From: Massalongia carnosa
Taxonomy: Eukaryota
Assembly (NCBI GenBank): GCA_965645245.1
Contig: OZ287069.1
Location: forward strand, 1,054,001 to 1,118,000
Length of the DNA stretch: 64,000 nt
Direction: 5' to 3'
Shown here: piece by piece, positions 5,180 to 43,955 of the stretch
Position numbering within the stretch: the first letter of the stretch is position 1
Layout: each line of letters starts with the position of its first letter
Notes under the pieces: model-generated
The model's input: only the letters and a program-made list of their open reading frames with translations
What the model was told of the DNA's origin: nothing
Database searches by the model: none
Made by a program: the position numbers and the translations under genes

Positions 5180-6966
5180 TGATGATGATGATGATGATTC
5201 TTATTCCGATGTGGTACCGGCCGAAGGCCGGCCCATGCGGGCGAGTCTATCTAGTTGTATAGTACATGGAAAACCTTTTGAGGAAGAAAAACCATGCAAT
5301 CCTGTGTCCGGCCGAGGACCCTCCGGGTCCCAGCCGTGTGCTCCATGAAAAAACCTTTGACCTAAGACAAGTATGAAAAATGAAACAAAGCATGCCTACT
5401 GTTAGCAGTATAGATGCTGTGCTGTCAGCGAAATTTGTGACAACAAACCTGTCTTCATTAGCCATTTTGTGACTAATTTCATTGCTTTAGATGACTCAGT
5501 GATTAATCGATAGTTGTTTGTGCCTATCGTATTTAGCAGAGTTTTTCTGTTGTGGTTGAGTTTGCAAAACATGATCACATGTTTTGCAGTCTGTTTGTGC
5601 TAGCCACATGAGCAGTTCGGGGACGAGACGTCTGGGACTCGGTGTCTATGTAGGAAGGCGGCTAGGCCTATCTTTTCTGAGCGTATCTGAATGGCTAGCG
5701 CGCTCTCCGCTTTGGCTAGAGTTTCGTGCAATTTGATGCGTTTTTTGGAGAGTGAACCTGATTGTGCCGGGGTGGGAACGGGTGTGCGTTCCTGATATGA
5801 TCTCCACGAGGCCTGCCATGCAACTGTGTGTCGTTTTTTGATTTGAGCAGTTATTTTGTTATGAGCGGCGCGTGCCTCCCCTATGTCTCGGGCGAGATTT
5901 GGGGGGGATTCGGCCCATGGTGGATTTGGTGTTGGTGTTGGAGGGTTATGTGCCTCCGATGTGATTCTCTTGGCCCAGGCGTATTTCAGCGTTCCTGGAG
6001 TGATGACTGGGGCCCTCTTGCGTCCCGCCCGACCTCGAAGTTTATTGGCTATTTTGTTGCATGCATTTGTGATGAAACTCTTTTGACCATTTCGACACAG
6101 GCGTTGTCTGGTCTGGGCCTGTAGTTGATCTAAATGTATGTCAATTGAGGCTATAAATGTCTCTGCTTCTAGGACAGCTATGGGCGTTACTTTGAAGGCT
6201 CCGGCTATGTTTCTTAGACATTTGTTTTGTATGACAACCAGTTTGTTCGAGATGACGTTTGATTTTTGAATTTCTTTTGGCATGTGCCAAATGGTGGAGC
6301 CGTACGTCATGGCCGGCCGGACTACGGCGGTGTAAACCTGGCGTGCCTTTAGAAGAGTGGCGCCCCATGTGGAGGTGGATATTTTTGTCAATGCCCTGGA
6401 TTGTTTTGTCATTTTTTCCTGGATTTTCCTTGTGTGAGCACCCCATTTCAATTTTGAATTGATTTGAAGTCCTAGAATTCTGATGTCTGTCTTTGGTTTT
6501 ATGATGTTATTTCCTATTTGAATAACAGTGAACATGTTGAATTTCTTCGAATTTCTTGACAGATGTATCAATTCGTATTTCTTCGGAGCGAAGACTGAAC
6601 CATGTCGACTTGCCCATTTTTCACATTTTTTGTGAATTACCTCTAGCGTCTTGCAATTTTCTTCGGTGCTTTTTCCGTATGCTAGCACATTGATGTCATC
6701 TACGAAGCCTACAGCACTCGTGTTGATGCCTGGTCTTTCACATATGTCTAGTAGGTCTGCATTGTAGAACAGATAAAGAATAGGTGAAATGGGGGAGCCT
6801 TGTGGGATTCCGGTTTTTACATCGAATATGCCCGTGACTCGGCTGTGAATCGCCAGGGTAGTGCTTCTTTCATTCAGAAAACTGTTCACCCAGTCAGTGA
6901 TCCATTTTGGGATTTTCCTTTTGCGAAGATTGTGAATCAGTCTTCGATATGTCACTGTGTCATAGG
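5180..6966 (-). mobile_element. 5'-truncated non-LTR retrotransposon (Tad1/CgT1-like LINE; RT plus C-terminal CCHC)
   Basis: RT motifs 'GIPQGSPISPILYLFY' and 'FVDDIN'; zinc knuckle 'CSCG*HKQTAKHVIMFC' broken by TAG at 5600-5602; (ATC)n 3' tail at about 5180-5198; perfect 15-bp TSD TAACTCGGGAGGTGA at 5165-5179 and 6967-6981. Confidence 0.95.
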
Positions 6967-7436
6967 TAACTCGGGAGGTGAAACTTTTAGTTTGCCGATA
7001 ATGAAGGTTACTTTGCTGAGCCATCCAATAATCTTTCTTCTGTGGCACTGGAGGAGAAGTAAATGTTCAAACCTTTAAAGTGAAGTACCTATTAGGAAAT
7101 GTCCCGAAATACATGTAGGCGTAGCGTCAGAGAGCGCAAATCCCTCTTACCAGTCCCCCTTTCATAGGTCGCTGTGAAGTTAAATTTGGCCCAATTGTAA
7201 CATATCTTGCAAAGGTTGGTACAAAGACTACTTACTATTCATGATTTAAAAGGCACATCATTGCTCTGTTCCCTCGGCTGTGGGAAAGCTGATTCGTAGG
7301 GCAAAAGGTTCGGATAGGGCCGACACTCCGTCCAGCGGAACGCGAATCACCGCTATATAACATCCTCAAGGTCGACCACTACTTCGCGTAGCCTAGAAAT
7401 CAATCTTTGGATGACCCATCATTTCTTTTGTTGAAA

Positions 7437-31649: not shown

Positions 31650-32275
31650 GAGCCTATTTATTATCTAGGTAACTAAACTACCCTAAAAGTAACTGGTCTA
31701 TTCTGTATGTGTCCAACTATCTATGCGCGTGTGTGTATGCACGCGTATGTACGTATTCTATTCCTGTATAACTACAGAGTATTTACCTAGAGGTATGTGT
31801 GTGTATGTATTGTACAACATACATACATCAATTCACATAGAGTACGCCTAACTTTATGTATGTGAATGCTGTGCTATGTTGTGCTGTGCTGTGGTGCAGG
31901 TATGTGCATGTGTGTGCGCGCGTGAGTATGTATGTGTGTGAGGCGGGTATATGTAAGTACGCGATTCGTGACTAGGTAGCCAACAATGTGCGCGCGGATG
32001 TGGCGATTAAGTTATCGCGCTAGGTAGGTAACTGCGATCTACTACTAACATAACCAGTTATGTGGTAGTGGTCCACGACCTATTTCTACCAATCTGCTGC
32101 CTACATTTTCTCCCCCGACGGATAACTTGCTGTGCCTAGCTATCTAGCTATCTAGGTAGATAGGTAGGCAAGAGTAATATCTGTATAAATACCTCCTGCC
32201 TAAGGTACTATAGTTAGAATTTAATGAGGAAGGAGTGGTTGGATGGAAGGATGGATGAATGAATGGATAAGGGGG

Positions 32276-33578
32276 CACGCGGGTGACAAAAAAAATGACA
32301 ACGTGGGCGTTTACCCCACCAAATTTTGCATGCATTCCCCCTTTTCAAGCACGATTATACATTGTTTACACAAGAAAATTTCAATTTAATAACCAGTTAT
32401 TGCACCTTCACCATCTAGTACTGCCTGCAGTCTACCAGGCATTGATCGCACCCGTTTATTGATGAATTCCTGAGAAACACGAGTCCAACCCTCCCAAATC
32501 AACTCCTTCAGAGTAGCATCATCCCAGTGTGGATATTTACGAAGATGTTGCTTAATCGGTAGCCAGCAGTTCTCGATTGGAGACAAATCAGGAGAAGACG
32601 AACAGTTAAAATAATGATTCAAATGATTGCTTTCCTTTCATGTCTTGACTGCATTTCGGGTTCTATCAGTGTCATGTCCGGAGTTCCCATCTTCTTCTAA
32701 AACGGAGTCGTCACCTCGATCAAGCCAAGACTTGACGACGGGATTGAGAATGGAGTCGATGTAGACCTGATGGGTCATCTTTTCATTGCTATTTTCAGGA
32801 ACATCGTAAAAGACGAGCTCAAACTTGAAATTATATCCAACTGCAGCCCTACAATGCATTCGTTTTCGATCTTTTTCAGGAGGAAGATCACGATGCTGAA
32901 TACAATCCAATCTATATCGAGTATCAGACTGTCTTATGATTCGTAGTTGACCTTCGGATCCATATCCAAAATGCACTTCGTCGCTGAATCGAACAAGACT
33001 TCAGTCTTCGGGTTTGAGGTATTTTTTCAGCATAACACGAGCGAACTCCATTATGCGTTCCATTGAAACGTCTTTCAGTCATTCTTTCACACATGCGAGG
33101 CATTTTTCATAGTCTAATGCAGCTTGAAGAATGCGATGCATAGTACGACCCACTACCTCAGCGTTGACCTCGAAAGCAATTTGATCCCAAGTATAACGCT
33201 TGTCTTCGAGCATTAAATCATCGTCTTGTAGAATATGATCAGCTTCTCGCACCTGCTCGCCTGTGACCTTTGATTTTCGTCCCCGAGTTTCATTTAGTTC
33301 AATAATATTGTGACGAGTTCGTGAAGAAGATCCTGCTTCAATCATTCTGTATCCAGCTCTTTCCTCAACGTTAAATTCTCTGAAAATATCACGAACATCA
33401 TGCGAAATTCCTTTCGCAACAAGAAACCTATGAGCTCCCTGTACCTTGGCCTTTTGAGGCGTATCATAGTGATATTTTCGGGGCATTTTATATAGGAATA
33501 ATGGTGAAAAGGTGGATGAGAACGAAATAAAGGGAGAAATTTTGGTGGGACGTTGTCATTTTTTTTGTCACCCGCGTG
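32276..33578 (-). mobile_element. Tc1/mariner-fold (DD38E) DNA transposon, element A, inactivated
   Basis: 29-bp perfect TIR CACGCGGGTGACAAAAAAAATGACAACGT (32276-32304 / 33550-33578); transposase 33486->32386 'RFSDEVHFG...EEDGNSGH...SPDLSPIENCW' with three in-frame TGA stops; flanks TAAGGGGG / TGAGGGGG. Confidence 0.93.
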
Positions 33579-34047
33579 TGAGGGGGTTTGGTCGGGACGG
33601 GAAGATAGGAATGAAATTGGGAATGAAATTTCTTTTTCCGTTGAACCGTTCATTCGCTCCTCTCATAACCACATCTCTAATTCTAAAATCCATTCCTATC
33701 TCTTTCAGCTCGTGTCCAATCCTCTCACCATAACCTCTCGCGCTTCACGTGTCCATCTACAAATATCCCAGAGGGGTCCACATGCTGCCTCAACAACAAA
33801 CGTGCCTTGCTACATGCGCTATGTACACGACAATCCCGGACGAGGAAAACTTTGGAAAGGAAAACAAAAAGATCCTACCTATCTACCTACCCACCTACCT
33901 TACCGTCTACTCAAGCCATGAATCCCATCGTTCCCAGCCAGCCCAACTAGTTCCGTCTACACGTTGCAACCAGAACAAGAATCAGACCGGGCCCAAAACC
34001 ATAAACGCCCCACACAACCCAGAAAATTACAATTCCGACCCAACTTC

Positions 34048-37000
34048 CTACCCTTCAACCTCCATGCTCCTTGGCCCAGACTCCTGGCAATCTCGAATGT
34101 CCTCCAACACCTCATCGAACACGACCTTCAACTCGCGCGCGACTCTCGCCCGGTTCCAGTCTCCGCGCGTGCGCCACACCTTGTCCATGAGAGCTGAGTA
34201 GATCTGTTCGAGCTGCTCGACACCGCAGCCGCTGCTCTGCAGCACGAGGTCGTCGAGCAGTTGGTCCGCGAAGGCGATGTCGGTTATGAGGTGTTTGGAA
34301 ACGGCCGCCATTGTGGGCATGGCGGTGGCGCCAACTGTACTGGCGGTGTGAAGGAGAGATTTGTGCGGAGGGGGTGGAGGAGCGGTGTCGTTGTTTAAGA
34401 GGGAGTGGATGCTCGCGTGGTAGGTGTTTGAGGGACGGGGAAATGGGGGCACGGCAGGGGTTTGGGACAAGGGTTGCGAGTAGGTTGGTTGAGATTGGGA
34501 GCTGTTGGCATTGCTGGCCTGGCCGGAACTTTGGGAACCTTGAGATATGGTCAGAGAGGTGGAGGGCTGGGAAGAGGAAATTGTTGAAACTACCTTGAGT
34601 ATCGGGGAGCTGGGAGTTGGGAGGCATGGGCTCGGGGATCATGGAGAGGTCTGGGCCTTCGTTTCTGGCATTGGAGCTTTGGGTGTTAAAGGGTCCGGAG
34701 GAACCCTGGACAGGCTTGTCGGACGAGGTGGTGGAGGCGTAGTTGATGTAGTCGTGAGGATTCGATCCTTCGGCCATGGGCGTGATTGCACTTCGCTGGG
34801 AAAGGCTTCCGGGCAGGGAACGGCGCTGCTGGAGAGAGGTAGGGCCTCCGGTGTAGGAGAATGGAAGTTGAGTCTGCGCAGATGGTCCAAAGGAGCTGTT
34901 TTGCGTTTCTCGCTCCGTTGAGGGACCTTCACTCGTAAGGTGAGTGTCGCCCTCGCCTCGAGAAGGCACCGAGGTGCCGTTGCTGTGATTGTGGCCGTGA
35001 AGATCGCTGAGGTCAGAAAGGCCAACGGACATTCCGTTGGTAAGAACGCTTCGTTGCGAAGGCTGCGACGGATTCGACGGAGTCACTGGATGATGCGGGA
35101 CGCCATTACTGATAGGCTGACCCAGGATGATAGGGCCTGACGATTCCTCGGTTGAAATTCCGCCATTCCTGGGGGGAACGTTGGATGGCATGAGCTCAAG
35201 TCTACGACCTTCCGCAGCCGCCTTTTCCTTGGCCTTCTCCACCATCTCTTTCTCCCTTTTCTTCTCTCGCTCGTAAACTGCCTCCAGCTCGGCAACCAGG
35301 ATTGGCTGGTCAGCCTCGATCGCACCCATGTCAACCTCAACGTTCGCTTGAAGCTCGTTCGCCTTCAGCAGACGCTCTTGATCCCCTACAGCCTTGGCGT
35401 CTTTAGCGAGCTTCTTGATGTCGGACACGAAATCCTTAGTTCTCTTGTAGTACCCGTTGGACAAACGCTTCTCAATCGTAACAATCTCTAGGTTGTAAAA
35501 AAATTTGCCCGTGGCTACCTCCACGAGGCCTGGTTCCCCGCGTTTGTCAACTCCCTTTTCGTATGGTCGGAAGTGGTCTTGTCTCCTCTGTTCAGGGGGC
35601 AGGTCGGTACTAACTATTCCTGGGTCGTCCTCATCGAACAGATATCTAATCTGGCTTTCATCAATCACCCCAGTCCTGAACTTCTTATATCTTAGTTTGA
35701 TCTGATCCATAATTGGCTGGATGCGCAGCTTCAGTTGATTGAGCAACTGCCTGTCCTTTTTCTTCTGAGCTTTAAGTTCAGCCTCTGATAAAATCGTAAG
35801 ATCTTTTGGCGGATCAGGAGGAACAGGCATCAGAATCTCGAATTTGCGTTTTTTGCGGTTTGCAGGCTCGGGAAAGTCTGTGGGCGAGATATTCAGGTAC
35901 TCTATTACGGCAGAAAAGTACTTGCGACGCATTGGCTAACCAGGTTTAGCATGACCGTCAAGTAATTTTTGCAAGGGAGCAAAGGCACCCACCCTGTCTG
36001 GCCTTTGAATCTCAAATGAATTCTTCTTTGAAAATCCAAACAGATCCCTAATCATCTGTGGATCCACATACTGTATCTCGCACTCGAGTATACCGAGCAA
36101 TAAAACCGGCTCAGTGGGAGCCAATGTCCGCAGCAGGCCAAGAAAGGTAGAAATCACCGTCTCGCCTACAGTTCGGTACCAGATGTCAACGTTGGGTATA
36201 TATACAACGCTGGGTTTATGCCGCCGAACTTCGGTGAAAAGCCTGATGACGGAAGCTTCGGTCGACTTGAAAATTTTTAGCAGGGACGCAGTTCGCGGTT
36301 AGAATACGTACACTGGTTGAATCGCTCAACAAAGTCGATAGATCGAACGCCTGCACATGCAATCCTTCGAAGTGATTCAAGAGAGCCCCTGCAAGGTATT
36401 GCTGACCCATGCCAGGTTTACCTCTGATTAACAGCCGTGGCCTAAAGACTCGAGACCGATCAAATTCTAAATAGGAATCAGCCAACGCGGTTGGAGTATC
36501 ATGCATTTGACCTTACCTTGCTGCATCAGTTCCGCCTTCATTCCCCTGTCATCCTCTGCGTCTTCAAACTCCGCTTCTTCCAGAGCCGTCAGACGCTTCT
36601 TTTGAGGAAGAATGTCAGCGACGATGTGCTCAATATCTGTAAGCGGATGTCGTAACAAGGGCTCAATATGTTTTGGCAGAGGGGCGGCACCGGACGAGCT
36701 TGACCGTTCGGACGAGGGAACCATTTTTTTAATGGATATCATAAAATCCTTGGCAGTAATGTTGATGGTCTCTGGTTTGATCATAAGCTTTTCGTTTGAC
36801 TTATAAATCTGGGGATATCGTCTTTGGATAGCATTCAAGGCAGCTTCCGTGCAAAGCGCACGGAGATCAGCACCACCGTAGCCCTTGGTCATTTTAGCGA
36901 TATCTTGCTTGAAGCTTGAAGCCAAGGGGGGTTCCCAGCCCTTGGTATGGATATCAAGGATGCTTCGTCGTGCTTCCGTGTTAGGTAAAGGGAAGTAGAA

Positions 37001-39411
37001 TTCTCGGTCAAATCTACCAGGACGGCGAAGAGCAGGGTCGATTGAGTCGGGTCGATTTGTAGCCCCAATGACGATGACTTGACCACGGCCATCCATTCCA
37101 TCCATGAGAGCGAGCAGGGTGGAGACTATCGAGGCATGGATTTGCTCCTGCTTGCTTGATCGTACAGGTGCGAGTCCTAGACTCATTAGAAGGACATCAA
37201 ATGACAGAGGAGTCAGTACGCACCATCGATCTCATCGAAAAATATTATGCTTGGCTGAGTCTTTCGAGCTTCATCGAATAAAAGTCTAAGCTGACGTTCC
37301 GCCTCACCGACCCATTTGCTCAAAGCGTCTGCTCCTTTTCGCATATAGAATGTTACCTTACGCCCTTGAGCGCTGACACTAGATGCTAAAGCTCGAGCAA
37401 GCAACGTTTTACCCGTGCCAGGTGGTCCATGGAACAACACCCCTCGAGGGGGAGTGACATGGAACCGCTGGAAGACCTCGGGGTATAGTAACGGAAGAGC
37501 TACCATTTCTTTCAGCTGGTCAATGTGACCTTGAAGGCCGCCGACGCTGTCAAAATTGACGTTCTGATCAACGCCGAGCGGATCGGCGTCCGCCAGCAAA
37601 TGCTTATCCTTGACTTTGCCAAGGTTTGCAGGCATCGCTGAAGCCCCTTGTAGCGGATCTGCACCATGGACCTGGCCTGCAGGAGGAGGGAAAAGACCAA
37701 AACCTGGGGGACCACTTGCCGTTGGGGTCATCCCAAAAGCACCACCTATCCCAGGAACACGCGGCCGCTGGGCAGCTGCATCATCATCACTGCTGTCGGA
37801 ATCGGCACCAGCCGCAGCACCAAGGCCACCAGGACCACCAAAGACAGGAGTTGGACCGCCTGCCCCACCAAAAGGTCCGTAGGTGGAGAAAAGGCTTCTT
37901 TGCCAAGCGCCACCGGCACCACCGCGCGCCCGGCGAGAAGGAGTGGTTGCTGAAGGTGACCCGTCATCGTCCAGTGGAAGAGCAAGGTCCGGTCGTAGGA
38001 TCCGGTAGTCGACTGCCTTTCGTTTTCTTTTCGGCTTGTCATCAAAGATTATTTCTGATCTCGTAGGTCGGCGAGGGCGACTTCCCTGGAGATCTTCCAG
38101 TTCCTCCGCCAGCTCTTCGGCAACCTCGCTGTCATGCTCATCTGATGCTGGACCCCGTTGACTCCTAGATTTACCTTTGCCGGCTTGAGCACCTCGGGTG
38201 CCAGGACTGTTGTTGTCCTCGTCAATCTGCTGGCTAGCCTTACGAGGTGAGCTTGTCGAATCTTCGGAATCCGAAATGTCTTCTTCCCCACCCTCATCAA
38301 ATCCAGGTTCGAAATCGCTGCTTTCTTCCCGGGCGCCTTTCTGGGAGCTTCGAGCTTTACAGGTCTGACGTGCGGACCGAATGGCTTCCCGGGCTGATAG
38401 ACCGCCGTTTCGACCAGGTACATCATCCACATTTTTTTCCGAAGGCGTTTTTTCGCTTTGCCTTGTAGCCCGTCGAGGTTTGCTGACTTCCTCTTCGTCA
38501 TCATCTTCTTCACCTGGCTCATCCTCGGCAGACTCCGGGATTTCTTCCAGCGGCGCATCTTCGAGAATTTCAGTATCAACTTGCGTAGCCATTTGCGTGT
38601 CTGTCTTGATAGCAGGTTGCGCATCGTGAGGTTCGTCCTCGTCCTCGTCATCCCGGCTAGCTGCAACCTCCGTCGGTTGTTGCTCTTTCGTTCCAACCGG
38701 GCTCTCTTCGTCTTGTTCAAAGACTGCACTTGTTGATGGCTTTTTGAGGCCTTTGCTCCCTCTCTTTGGCCGTGGGACATCCACTTCTGGGCTTCGTGTG
38801 CCTTGATGCACCGGCACCGCATGGCGACCGGAATCTGTCAGTTTCAGAATCGTTTCGGAATCGTCGTGGGCGATGCGACTGCTTCGTCGCGGTTCAGAAA
38901 CATGGACCTCCGAAGAAGCTCTGAGGCCAGTCCCCACGCTACCGCTACGCGCTCTCACGCTTCGTCTTGTGGGAGCGGGATTCGGCTGGGTTGTCCCCAC
39001 GTTGAGTTTCAGCACAAGTGACTTGGTCTTTCCCTTCTTCTTTGGCGTTGCAATTTTCTGGGTTGTCGAGTCCGGTGGGTCTTCAATTGAATTCTCAGTC
39101 TCGGAGTCTTGATACACCGGACGCTGCTTGGTGGCTTTGCGCTTCGGCCGTCCAGTCCGCGCATCGAGCTCAGGTTCCTCCTCGTCTAGTTTCCTATCAA
39201 AGGAAGCTTCGCTGATATCACTGTCATCGCTTATCTCCTCCGATCCGTCGTCATCATACATCCTGCGTTGCCTTTTACGGGACGGTTTGCCCTGCTGGCT
39301 TCGGGAAGGTTTGGCTCTCGCAGTCCTGGAGGCAGCTCCATAAGTCGAATCGCCGGAATCGGACTTGAGAGGATCGAATTCCTCCGCTTTACGCTTGGGT
39401 CTGCTAGGCAT
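34048..39411 (-). CDS. YTA7: AAA+ ATPase histone chaperone Yta7/Abo1/ATAD2, multi-exon
   Basis: Acidic N-terminus; 'GPPGTGKT', 'IIFFDEID', '[22 protein letters not shown]'; second AAA 'GMGQQYLA'; bromodomain-like 'IEKRLSNGYY'; C-terminal 'SGCGVEQLEQI'. Confidence 0.94.
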
Positions 39412-40989
39412 GATGTTGGGTTGGTACGAGAGCAAGGTTTGAGCCTTCCGGTGTAGTCTGTTCTTAGTCAGAAGGATTTATGGGGAACGTAGAAAGATCG
39501 AGAGAATTCACTTACGGGTGGGAATTAAAAGGAAGAGGCCCTTGATTGCGTCGCACGCATAGTTTCCGGGGGGAACAATACCATCCAAATTATCGGCTCT
39601 ACATACTCCGGCGATGAGATGACAGTTGAGGGTTGAAGGCGAGCTGAACCACTGCGACCGGTGTTTCTGCGATTCAAAGGATCGAAAATCGGGTGTGGTA
39701 GATGATGGAGTTCTGGGAGAAAAATAAGGCTCGTAGGCTAGAGGGTGATGGAGATGGAGATGGATGGATTCAATGGACGAGCGCTGGATCAACAAGTTGG
39801 GGCTTCTCCATTTGTTTTGCTCCTCGCTTAGCTCAAAGTAAGCTAGCTGGGGGGCTAAGCACTAGGCAGGCGTTTCGCATGGAAACCAAACCCTGAACCC
39901 ACAGTCTGGTCACCTGAGGCGCAATATCCTCAAATCTTTTCACTTCCGTCCCCAGTTTTCGAGCGCAACTCGCAGGAAGAGATGATGCGAAAGACGACGT
40001 GAGATGGTCAGATTCAGGCATGTCAACTCGTTGATACGCAATCTTTATCGTACTAATGATGAACCTCGACCTTTCTCGCTATTGATATCCTTCGAGTCAG
40101 CTCGACGGCATGTCTCCATATCCATAGATGCCATTGATGGCCTACCGCAGGTACGGGATGAGGCTTAAAAGCTTATCATGCTCATCGTCGTGGCGTTGTG
40201 TGGGGGGATCCCGCCGTCTACAGTCACGTGATATTTCATTCCTTTGGTTTTAGGTTAGAATCTTCTGCCAACCCCTCAACATCGTTGACGTCTTCACTTC
40301 ATGTGTTTATTTATGTCCACTTACGTACCAAGGTCAAGGACATTTTGAATTTCTCGCAGCTCGAAGAAAAGAAGCAGCCTTCACCATGTTTCAGGGACTG
40401 ATTCGCCGGTCTTAGATAAGGGTATACGTGGTTGTTTTGTTTTGACTCCGAGTTTCCAAGTTTCTCCGATTGATCTCGCTTCGTTTCAGCGTTATCAAAA
40501 ACGTAGAAGTGCTCGTCGGCACCGATCAATTAAAACGTCAATTCAGCGGCCAAGCCTTTGATCACATTCAGCAAAACCTCATACCTGGAGTTATCCATAA
40601 CGCTTTCATTTCTCGACAGCGAACGTAGATATGGATCTTAATCTGAAGATGCAGTGGCTGGCCCTTAGCAGTGTCAAAGCCATCGATTGGACAGGCTAGC
40701 CTTGCCAACTGGGTCTTACCTTGACCTGAGGGTAGTGACATGCTGCAACCCTCCATGAGGCCAAAAGGACCCTACTCGTAGTGTCACCCCCATGTGCAAC
40801 ACGCTAATACCACGGCAAAACGACTCCAATAACACTCGAGGATTGGGGAATACGACTCTTTTAGCTATCTACTTACTGATTAGCGATGGGGGTACTCTAG
40901 AGGATTTGATTGCTCGGACCATTCACTGTAATCCTCTAGTCTTCAAACCATGACTAGATCCGGCATAGTTGGGACCAAGTATTGCCAAG

Positions 40990-42292
40990 CACGCGGGGAC
41001 CAAAAAAGTTGCGACACCAAAATTTTCACCCCACCAAACTCCTATCAAAACATCGATTTATTTACATCAGAAACTGCTACTAATGACCTGTCATTCTTCC
41101 ATCACCGTCTAAAACGTCCTCCAGTCGTTGGGGCATACTTAATACCAAAGTATTAATGAATTCCTGAGAAACATGATCCCTCCAGCCCGTTTGAATGGCC
41201 TCAATCGTACTCTTATCATCCCAATGATCTGATTTTGACAGCCATTGTTTTACTGGCTGCCAGCAGTTCTCAATGACGGAAAAATCGGGAGATTTAGGAG
41301 CATTCAAGTAGTACTTTAGCCCATGTTCTTCCTTCCATTTTCGAACAATGTTGTTGTTGTTTGCAGAACCGTGACCAGAATCACCATCTTCTTCCAAAAC
41401 AAATCGTTCACCGACCTCGAGACATGGCTTAATAACAGGCTCCAAAATAGAGTCAATATAGACTCGTTGACTCATTTTCCCATTGTTATTTCCTGGAACC
41501 TCGTAAAAGTACAAATCGGACTTGTAATTCCACCCGACCTTAGCCCAACAATGATAACGTTTTTGCACTGATTCTGGGGTTTCTTTCCCTTCCTGCATAC
41601 AATCAAAGCAGTATCTTTCACCCGGACGACGTATGATTGGTAATTGGCGTTGAGGTCCCTGTCCAAAATGCACTTCATCACTGAAGCGTACCAGCTTGCA
41701 GTCCTCAAGAGTGTACGTGCATTTCATTTCTCTGGCAAATGTACGTCGTTTGGCACGTATATTCGGAGACAGCCATGTTCTCGTGCATGCTAAACACTTG
41801 TGATACTCCAAGTCCTGCATAGCTCTTCGAACGGTATGCCAATGTACGTGATTTGCCCCTATGAGACCCACTTCCGCAGCTAATTCATGCCACGTTTTAG
41901 CTCGTGCTTGTATGCCTCCATTTTCTATGATCTCCTGCATCTTTTGAATGTACTCAGCTGCTATGAGTTTCTTTCTTCCTCGCGTTTCCTGCCTGTTTGA
42001 ATTGTTATGAAGACGTCGAGAAGAATCATCTTTGAGCATTGCCCATCCCCTGCTCCGTTCCACTCCAAAATGACGAAAAACGTCGCTTTTGAAATAGGAT
42101 ATGCCGTGCGCGTTGTTAAATTCGCACAAAGCTTGTACTTTGGCTTTAGTAGGTGTAGAGTACTCATGTTGAAAATCATGAGACTCTAACTGAGGTGTTT
42201 GTTGACGTTGCAAGATGATTGAATTGTTTGATGATAAATGAGTTTTGGTGGAGTGAAAATTTTGGTGTCGCAACTTTTTTGGTCCCCGCGTG
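40990..42292 (-). mobile_element. Tc1/mariner-fold (DD38E) DNA transposon, element B, uninterrupted ORF
   Basis: 49-bp TIR with one mismatch, CACGCGGGGACCAAAAAAGTTGCGACACCAAAATTTTCAC(C/T)CCACCAAA (40990-41038 / 42244-42292); open transposase frame to 41080 'RFSDEVHFG...EEDGDSGH...SPDFSVIENCW'; direct repeat CCAAG at 40985-40989 and 42293-42297. Confidence 0.95.
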
Positions 42293-42469
42293 CCAAGCTA
42301 AACGGCGTATGTACTTCGTACATAGCGTATTTATTGACCAAGCTTAGACTGAGATTGTCATGTATCTCCCTCGCGCCTATGAAAATCACCCACTTCCCAC
42401 GAACCCACACTCGTGTCGCCCAGAAAGTGCTCCGGGTTTTATTTTTAGTCTATATAAACCAACCCGAAG

Positions 42470-42884: not shown

Positions 42885-43955
42885 ATGGCTCCCCAAACAC
42901 CTCCAGCAACAACAGCAACCACAACCACAACCGCCAGACCCCCACTCCCACTCACCTCCCCTACCCCCTCTGTTTCCGCCCCCCCACCTCCCCTCTCCCA
43001 CACGCCCCCGCTCCTGGTCAAAAAGCTTTCCCCCGACGCCAGGGCCCCGACGCGGGGGAGCGCCTTCGCCGCCGGATATGACTTGTACAGCGCGCGGGAG
43101 GCGGTGATTGCGGCGAGGGGGAAGGGCATGGTGGAGACGGATTTGGCGATTGCGGTGCCGGAAGGGACTTGTGCGTTTCGTTCCAGTTTCCTTGTTTTCC
43201 CCAATTCACTCCGTTCCGTCCCCCTTCCACACATCTACACAGCAGGAGGGTTCGTCAGGAAAAAGCAAAAGCCGTGCCCCAGCTCAAGGCGAATGAATAA
43301 CCTCCCCCCCCCCCCCCAAAACCCCCAAGGCGTTCAAATTAAAAAAAGGGCGAAAACGTCCGCTAGGGGGCAGATCTTTTGTCCCCATAACGAACGAATT
43401 CCCCCCCCCCAGCCAGCTAGCTAGTCAATCCATCAAGCTAACTTCCCCCCTCCCCTCTCTCTCTGAACCCCTAGACGGCCGCATCGCCCCCCGCAGCGGG
43501 CTCGCGGTCAAGAATTTCATCGACACAGGCGCGGGGGTCATCGACGCCGACTACAGAGGCCCAGTCAAGGTCCTGCTGTTCAACCACTCGGAGGTGGATT
43601 TTCACGGTACGAAGTCTCCGTTGTTCGATATCAACTTCCCCCTGCCCTAGGCAAAACAAGATAAAAACCCCCTCGCTAATACACTCCGCCCCTCCTTTGC
43701 CTATAGTTCAACCAGGCGATCGTATAGCGCAACTCGTTCTCGAGCGTGTAAGCGTTGCCGCCCCTCTCCCTTTCTACGAAATGTACACTACGCACCAGAC
43801 GGAAAAATCGGGACAAAACGAAGAAGAAGAAAAAAGGAAAAGGAGAAAGGTGCTAATTGGTCCGCGAGGAACAGATCTATACGCCGGAGGTGCTGGTAGT
43901 GGAGGAGCTGGAGGCTAGTGTTAGGGGCGCCGGGGGGTTTGGGAGTACGGGGTAG
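42885..43955 (+). CDS. DUT1: dUTP pyrophosphatase, 4 exons
   Basis: '[13 protein letters not shown]', '[10 protein letters not shown]', '[11 protein letters not shown]', '[11 protein letters not shown]', '[10 protein letters not shown]'. Confidence 0.95.

Follow-up and report, generated by a model that had tools for sequence, protein, structure and literature searches.

A Tc1-like transposon lineage with GC-rich 5-bp target-site duplications, and the odd junction of one inactivated copy

Two Tc1-like elements and the gene between them

The window, a 64,000-nt stretch of contig OZ287069.1 from Massalongia carnosa, holds two transposons, here called elements A and B, with a host gene lying between them. 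Their features and immediate flanks are listed below by window position.

32268-32275, + strand: left flank of element A, TAAGGGGG, left half of an apparent 8-bp duplication
32276-33578: element A, 1303 bp
32276..32323, + strand: left (3′) terminal inverted repeat (TIR) of element A, perfect core 32276-32304
32315-32323: subterminal motif CCCACCAAA in the left TIR of element A
32386..33486, − strand: transposase pseudogene of element A, 366 codons, DD38E
33541..33578, − strand: right (5′) TIR of element A, perfect core 33550-33578
33579-33586, + strand: right flank of element A, TGAGGGGG, the 8-mer of the earlier note
34112..39411, − strand: host gene, AAA ATPase with AAA lid and a weak bromodomain match
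40985..40989, + strand: left target-site duplication (TSD) of element B, CCAAG
40990..42292, − strand: element B, 1303 bp, 49-nt TIRs, DD38E
42293..42297, + strand: right TSD of element B, CCAAG, then C-TA as in the target consensus

The stretch was present in five of seven sequencing runs (three studies), and the contigs of four runs were compared with it. Runs X2, X4 and X5 have what looks like the genotype of the window itself and do not count as independent of it, and the genotype in run X1 is 0.2% away (13 differences in 6.9 kb).

The inverted repeats of element A match at 100% over 29 nt (32276-32304 and 33550-33578), and TA abuts neither end. The TIRs of sister copies are longer than this perfect core, at ∼52–55 nt. 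Relative to the sisters, the left TIR of element A has a 3-nt deletion and the right TIR a 13-nt deletion, which a contig of run X5 also carries, aligning there with no gap. The subterminal motif described in the earlier note was confirmed: position 32315 has CCCACCAAA and position 33541 its complement. Three further family-A copies (L002, L003 and L004) all break off inside one TIR, no more than ∼15 nt apart and near the site of the 13-nt deletion; the missing ends of these copies and of L015 did not lie in the adjacent 10–20 kb.

The catalytic triad of the element A transposase is D169-D266-E305, and the reading frame contains three in-frame TGA codons (136, 162 and 283), all at W positions. 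The ORF is dead, a point that the earlier note had not stated. About 3% of the element consists of private substitutions, and 15 of its 19 private C>T/G>A changes are in a CpC context and none in CpA. Such CpC-biased changes in family-A copies are an unusual signature, RIP- or methylation-like; 32 of the 47 equivalent changes in copy L005 are also in CpC, whereas those of copy L006 are biased towards CpA instead. Element A is likely to be old and inactivated, a member of a Tc1-like cut-and-paste lineage found in filamentous ascomycetes.

Element B has a stop-free frame of 364 codons (41080-42174) with the triad D166-D263-E302. There is no ATG at the homologous start, and use of the first ATG, at 42039, would skip the first HTH. 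The earlier note had presented the two elements as divergent families with the same DD38E spacing, which is borne out: the proteins are 46% identical and both are DD38E. The common terminus that it described is in fact shifted by one base between the two, GGGTGAC in A against GGGGAC in B. Both elements are indeed 1303 bp long, but this equality is a coincidence, because element A lost 3 and 13 nt in its TIRs.

The AAA ATPase gene, which we take to be YTA7-like, belongs to the host and is outside the transposon. It does lie between the two elements, as the earlier note had remarked, but the arrangement looks like chance, because A and B are not of one family and there is no match between GGGGG and CCAAG, the flanks on their outer sides. 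The same two observations rule out a composite transposon made of A, the gene and B. Elsewhere in the window, at 1133-2164, 5600-7024 and 42885-43424, there are integrase and reverse-transcriptase fragments of retroelements and, directly to the right of element B, a dUTPase-like ORF. At 40424-40425, inside TATA, two contigs of run X1 diverge from the window with 25 unaligned letters each, probably reflecting a polymorphic insertion of another element. Joints at 38507/38511 in the same run, with sides of 20–21 letters, were discarded as lacking support.

Target-site duplications in the genome and in metagenomes

Further copies were gathered by similarity to A or B together with end patterns, ignoring the flanks. 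After removal of chimeric end pairings by keeping the shortest pair, 204 partly overlapping loci reduced to 117 distinct two-ended elements with CACGCGG termini, which are a sample and not the whole genome. An exact 5-bp TSD was found in 87 of the 117, against a null rate of 0.45% for mismatched flank pairs from the first 99 copies. Seven more copies have a 5-bp TSD with one mismatch, five have an exact 5-mer plus 2–3 extra bases, two have an exact 4-bp match and 15 have no recognisable TSD. A single copy, L273, has an exact 7-bp duplication, and exact duplications of 8–12 bp were found in none of the 117. The 5-bp TSD holds across subfamilies whose transposases are 46–77% identical, and 48 of the 117 copies still have an ORF of 330 aa or more.

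TA abuts none of the 234 ends, and the non-TA behaviour for which the earlier note had argued from two insertions is real and much stronger than those two indicate. Its suggestion that TSD length might vary between subfamilies (5 versus 8 bp) finds no support. Among two-ended copies with family-A termini, the TSD is exact at 5 bp in the three with a clean junction (L006, L064 and L069) and also in L005, where TG is added to it, and element A is the odd one out. The collection of copies that the note had proposed does give a consistent duplication with no TA, but of 5 bp, and a duplication of 8 bp cannot be upheld as a property of the family. Given the exact 7-bp case of L273, longer duplications may arise on rare occasions.

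The target sites have a clear structure. Symmetrised, they read T (67%), A (60%), N, then C/G C/G A/T C/G C/G, then N, T, A; the TSD itself is 65% GC. The flanking TA position is filled on at least one side at 61 of the 87 exact sites, compared with 0.048 for the frequency of TA across the window, and the preference is found in every subfamily with at least three sites. In this lineage the TSD is fixed at 5 bp and the preferred target is a palindrome, TA-N-[SSWSS]-N-TA, in which TA lies one base outside the duplication. That a Tc1-like lineage with a 5-bp TSD exists is almost certain.

An ordinary TA-targeting Tc1 element with misplaced ends, or a chance match in G-rich flanks, might be suspected, since the text available from PMC7325037, PMC8533490 and PMC5630946 gives TA as the superfamily rule and TA is enriched near the sites. 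However, the copies agree up to CACGCGG and diverge directly outside it, and where TA is enriched, it stands in single-copy host DNA beyond the duplicated 5-mer. The census of ends refutes this explanation, which we regard as scarcely tenable. A control with TA families was sought among the 30 best other DDE_3 loci, none of which gave a TIR within 1.5 kb. IS630-like DDE_3 families (L229–L258) are abundant in the genome, apparently with an intron and with no TIR within 1.5 kb.

Several copies have features of their own. Short elements of 210–680 bp with CACGCGG ends and mostly 5-bp TSDs (L064, L069, L030, L273, L276 and L311) are non-autonomous MITE derivatives of the lineage. The element at L040:1501-2851 centres an inverted duplication, its right flank being the reverse complement of its left over at least 14 nt, and L018 is a short version of this arrangement. 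Different subfamilies share flanking sequence in three sets (L053/L100/L101/L141, L107/L128 and L122/L125), either because one position within another repeat family was hit more than once or because copies recombined.

Relatives in metagenomes have the same sites. Of 80 metagenome loci, 50 had no end pair, two had short flanks and three were repeat sites, leaving 25 distinct sites. Thirteen of these have an exact 5-bp TSD and one has a single mismatch; the other 11 have no 5-bp match, some owing to mispaired ends. None of the 25 has a TA or a 6–12 bp TSD, and the TA-N-5-N-TA profile recurs among them. The 13 exact elements are 34–57% identical to element B and have no megablast match to the genome's copies. 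They span seven Ga datasets and one contig series, and the six from that series are not independent hosts.

The junction of element A

The flanks of element A, TAAGGGGG and TGAGGGGG, match at seven of eight positions. This match, which the earlier note read as an 8-bp TSD, is real and reflects a duplication, because only 0.005% of 38,808 mismatched flank pairs reach 7/8. We divide the junction as follows.

32271..32275, + strand: most likely left 5-bp TSD, GGGGG, with TA-A before it in agreement with the target consensus
33579..33580, + strand: extra TG, repeating the last two bases of element A
33581..33586, + strand: putative right target copy, either AGGGG (with one G>A) and a further G, or a 6-bp match, AGGGGG

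On the target matrix the TA-A-[GGGGG]-G-TT register scores 4.1 bits, where true sites average 3.6, and a T(A/G)AGG register at the same site scores −7 to −8 bits. A terminal TG repeated between the TIR and an exact 5-bp TSD is found in four of the 117 copies (L005, L014, L097 and L290), one of which, L005, is a sister of element A; the null rate for an extra TG with an exact 5-mer is 0.015%. Ends followed by TG account for only one of 174 in clean copies and 8 of 60 in the rest (P = 9e-5). Copy L263 has a G run plus TG pattern like that of element A, with the G run mutated, and probably carries the extra TG as well.

By likelihoods that are rough and post hoc, GGGGG with TG and a CpC-type G>A is ∼4 times as likely as TG with a 6-bp duplication and ∼12 times as likely as an 8-bp duplication with one substitution. 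It is very likely that the junction combines some 5- or 6-bp TSD with added bases, and with modest confidence we favour the specific combination of a 5-bp TSD, TG and a mutation.

The letters can also be explained without mutation, as TG plus an exact 6-bp AGGGGG, or as an exact GGGGG with a 3-nt TGA filler from imprecise repair. Both fit the sequence at element A exactly, TG extras are established in other copies, and on the target matrix the left TA-A-[GGGGG] does just as well (4.05 bits). However, an exact 6-bp match occurs in only one of the 117 copies, inside a C run, there is no further 3-nt extra among the copies, and the rough estimate above makes such a junction about 4-fold less likely; we consider it unlikely.

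Less probable still is a one-off 8-bp TSD with one later substitution, made by a transposase that occasionally staggers wider. The 7/8 match is far above chance, the exact 7-bp L273 and the young copy L097, readable as 6/7, come near to it, and element A, at ∼3% divergence, is old enough for a mismatch to have arisen in a true 8-bp pair. Moreover, an IS481EU family has two or more TSD lengths, according to the part of PMC10045372 available. Against this, the census has no exact 8–12 bp duplication and the sisters give 5 bp. The substitution would have to be either a G>A in CpA context (0/19 in element A) or an A>G (2/37), and the extra bases begin with TG, as they do in all four other offset cases.

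If the junction does consist of a 5-bp TSD, TG and a mutation, element A would have inserted at TA-A-[GGGGG]-G-TT, and the terminal TG would have been repeated at one end, through end processing or gap repair. Such TG-repeat junctions make up about 4% of copies. The extra TG would fit cleavage of the non-transferred strand at 2 nt within the end, and its presence suggests a cut of this kind. A later G>A at the first G of the right TSD, in CpC context, would then have produced the apparent 7/8 match over 8 bp. The empty site would in that case have six Gs, not five (GGATAAGGGGGTTTGG or GGATGAGGGGGTTTGG). A single TGAGGGGG in the empty allele, which the earlier note had proposed looking for, would not separate these models, which could instead be told apart by how long the G run is and by whether TAA or TGA is present.

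In the contigs of the four runs there was no bridging joint that would indicate an empty allele of A or B, with the left flank unspanned in the listed pieces. The insertion is also present in the genotype of run X1. The right flank is confirmed, since at 33579-33586 the short-read contigs from three runs are identical to it. The single 8-bp junction of element A matters little in itself.

The transposase and its relation to known systems

By sequence and fold, the transposase of the lineage belongs to the IS630-Tc1-mariner (ITm) superfamily, in the Tc1 branch. Against Pfam, the element B frame matches PF13358 (DDE_3) at E = 4e-11 (43.4 bits; cut-off 28.6), with a weak match to HTH_Tnp_Tc3_2 (PF01498) and a match to the IS630 model NF033545 that are both below cut-off. 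A profile of 45 sequences searched against PDB sequences found Sleeping Beauty (SB100X) at E = 7.5e-25 and Mos1 at ∼4e-4. The predicted model has a pLDDT of 85; its fold search is topped by SB100X and Mos1, and no protein other than Sleeping Beauty, Mos1 or SETMAR stands among the fold matches listed at E ≤ 0.001. Of the features of ITm elements, the lineage has the DDE_3 RNase H domain with its triad, the Tc1/mariner fold, an N-terminal HTH region and a length of 1.3–2.4 kb with a single ORF between TIRs; the TA target and TA TSD are absent.

Homologs numbered 196 at E ≤ 0.001, with 181 clusters at E ≤ 1e-30, and those with names are ascomycetes (Colletotrichum, Ophiobolus, Parathielavia, Pseudogymnoascus, Clonostachys and Xylogone). 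Clusters P0002, P0004, P0024 and P0045 were left out of the count of independent hosts, and phage sequences gave no match. The D-E spacing among 126 homologs is mostly 37 or 38 (51 and 45, respectively), with 34 in six. A linker motif C127-x2-C130, together with C192 and H208, is conserved in 136–144 of 160 homolog sequences. Among 154 proteins, 128 have both the linker CxxC and C192, 11 have neither and 15 are discordant (P = 4e-8, uncorrected for kinship).

Transib/RAG elements have ends starting with CAC, an A-rich subterminal run and a GC-rich 5-bp TSD. The lineage is similar in its 5-bp TSD of 65% GC and in its CAC termini followed by an A run, which could point to a Transib/RAG-like element or to another superfamily with 5-bp TSDs. 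Yet the transposase matches only DDE_3/HTH_Tnp_Tc3_2, IS630, Sleeping Beauty and Mos1 in sequence and fold, and Pfam, PDB sequence and fold searches gave no RAG1-core-like match. There is practically no chance that the lineage belongs there, and the resemblance of the ends is convergent at most.

A dimeric Tc1/mariner transposase attacks the target after cutting the transposon ends, and in Mos1 there is contact between the clamp loop and the linker of the partner. According to the accessible text of PMC5481204, the TSD arises from staggered cleavage of the ends and repair of the gaps, and Mos1 holds its target in a 147-degree bend at TA, with flipped adenines trapped. The transposase of the present lineage would instead join the ends to target positions five bases apart, not two. 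In the dimer, the active sites would be further apart and the target less sharply bent than with Mos1; two attacks five bases apart on a GC-rich core make a milder bend probable. A central TA would no longer be selected, and TA would be read, or simply bent, outside the cuts. The linker CxxC and the clamp-loop Cys, conserved together, are a candidate metal site that may set this geometry by fixing the spacing of the active sites, a hypothesis suggested by the co-conserved Cys residues.

The most far-reaching reading, to which we give a probability of roughly 0.55, is of an undescribed, widespread ascomycete Tc1-like lineage off the TA rule, with 5-bp GC-rich TSDs in an 11-bp palindrome, TA-N-SSWSS-N-TA, a remodelled and possibly metal-stapled linker and clamp loop, and rare TG-extended junctions that record end cutting. 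If true, no ITm family before it would have had an integrase- or Transib-like 5-bp stagger, and it would offer a natural way to study how the length of the TSD is set by DDE transposases. The TA duplication serves to diagnose the superfamily of DNA transposons that is most widespread, and in Mos1 structures it is accounted for by a sharp bend and base flipping; a close Sleeping Beauty-like relative with a 5-bp stagger and a displaced TA preference makes the transposase parts that set target spacing and sequence testable. The lineage might also yield a vector that inserts differently, into GC-rich cores, and TA-based annotation pipelines would misplace or misclassify its elements in fungal genomes.

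In the portions of the literature available to us, TA is stated for ITm elements in PMC7325037, PMC8533490, PMC10045372 (‘in general’), PMC5630946, PMC13469147, PMC13728883, PMC2836289, PMC3164196, PMC7731502 and PMC11544213. A literature search, with most subscription journals and Repbase outside its scope, found no ITm family with a 5-bp TSD, and the available portions of PMC2851567, PMC4522978 and bioRxiv 2025.06.16.659975 contain no Tc1-like lineage of this kind. A motif search of six supplements of PMC7325037, three FASTA files not being among them, found nothing. The lineage may already be catalogued, for example in Repbase. Fungal MITE families with 5–6 bp TSDs (PMC4522978, in part) and TremH, which has no defined TSD, 525 aa and a DDD triad (PMC2836289, in part), were considered, and no link was made.

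By spacing, TSD and host range, the lineage fits no named family with which it was compared. The spacing of 38 in A and B separates them from DD34E/Tc1 and is that of DD38E/Intruder, although spacing alone is not kinship. Intruder has TA TSDs and is mainly restricted to animals (PMC7731502, accessible text), whereas the present lineage has ascomycete homologs and a 5-bp TSD. DD37E/TRT, whose D-E spacing also recurs in the lineage, is a vertebrate and protozoan clade with TA TSDs, whose fungal matches are Mucoromycotina Tc1 elements with none in Dikarya, in the part of PMC5630946 available; the lineage differs in its ascomycete hosts and 5-bp TSD. Sagan has a long insertion between D and E and a TA TSD (PMC3164196, in part), in contrast to the spacing of 37–38, the lack of a long insertion and the 5-bp TSD seen here. 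IS481EU is a different superfamily with more than one TSD length (PMC10045372, in part), whereas the lineage is essentially fixed at 5.

Sailor, Bogo, BstTc1, TBE and Tc4 resemble the lineage in showing that the TA rule can bend. TBE and Tc4 have 3-bp TSDs. Among non-TA ITm elements, Sailor has TATA (PMC8533490), and in Blepharisma Bogo has TAA and BstTc1 has TATA (bioRxiv 2022.05.02.489906), as given in the accessible parts of these sources. All of these TSDs are 3–4 bp and A/T-only or TA-containing, whereas that of the lineage is 5 bp, 65% GC and degenerate. The lineage shares its fold with Mos1, but a 5-bp SSWSS stagger cannot use the Mos1 scheme unchanged.

The closest likeness is to the Tc1 family (Sleeping Beauty, Tc1 and the fungal impala), with which the lineage shares a length of ∼1.3 kb, one ORF of ∼360 aa, short TIRs starting with CA, an HTH region with a GRK linker and the FSDE...D...SPDLxPIEN motifs. 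It differs from that family in its GC-rich 5-bp TSD in place of TA, with TA one base outside the duplication, in a D-E spacing of mostly 37–38, and in the linker CxxC and clamp-region Cys/His. Sleeping Beauty is its best solved relative, by both sequence and fold.
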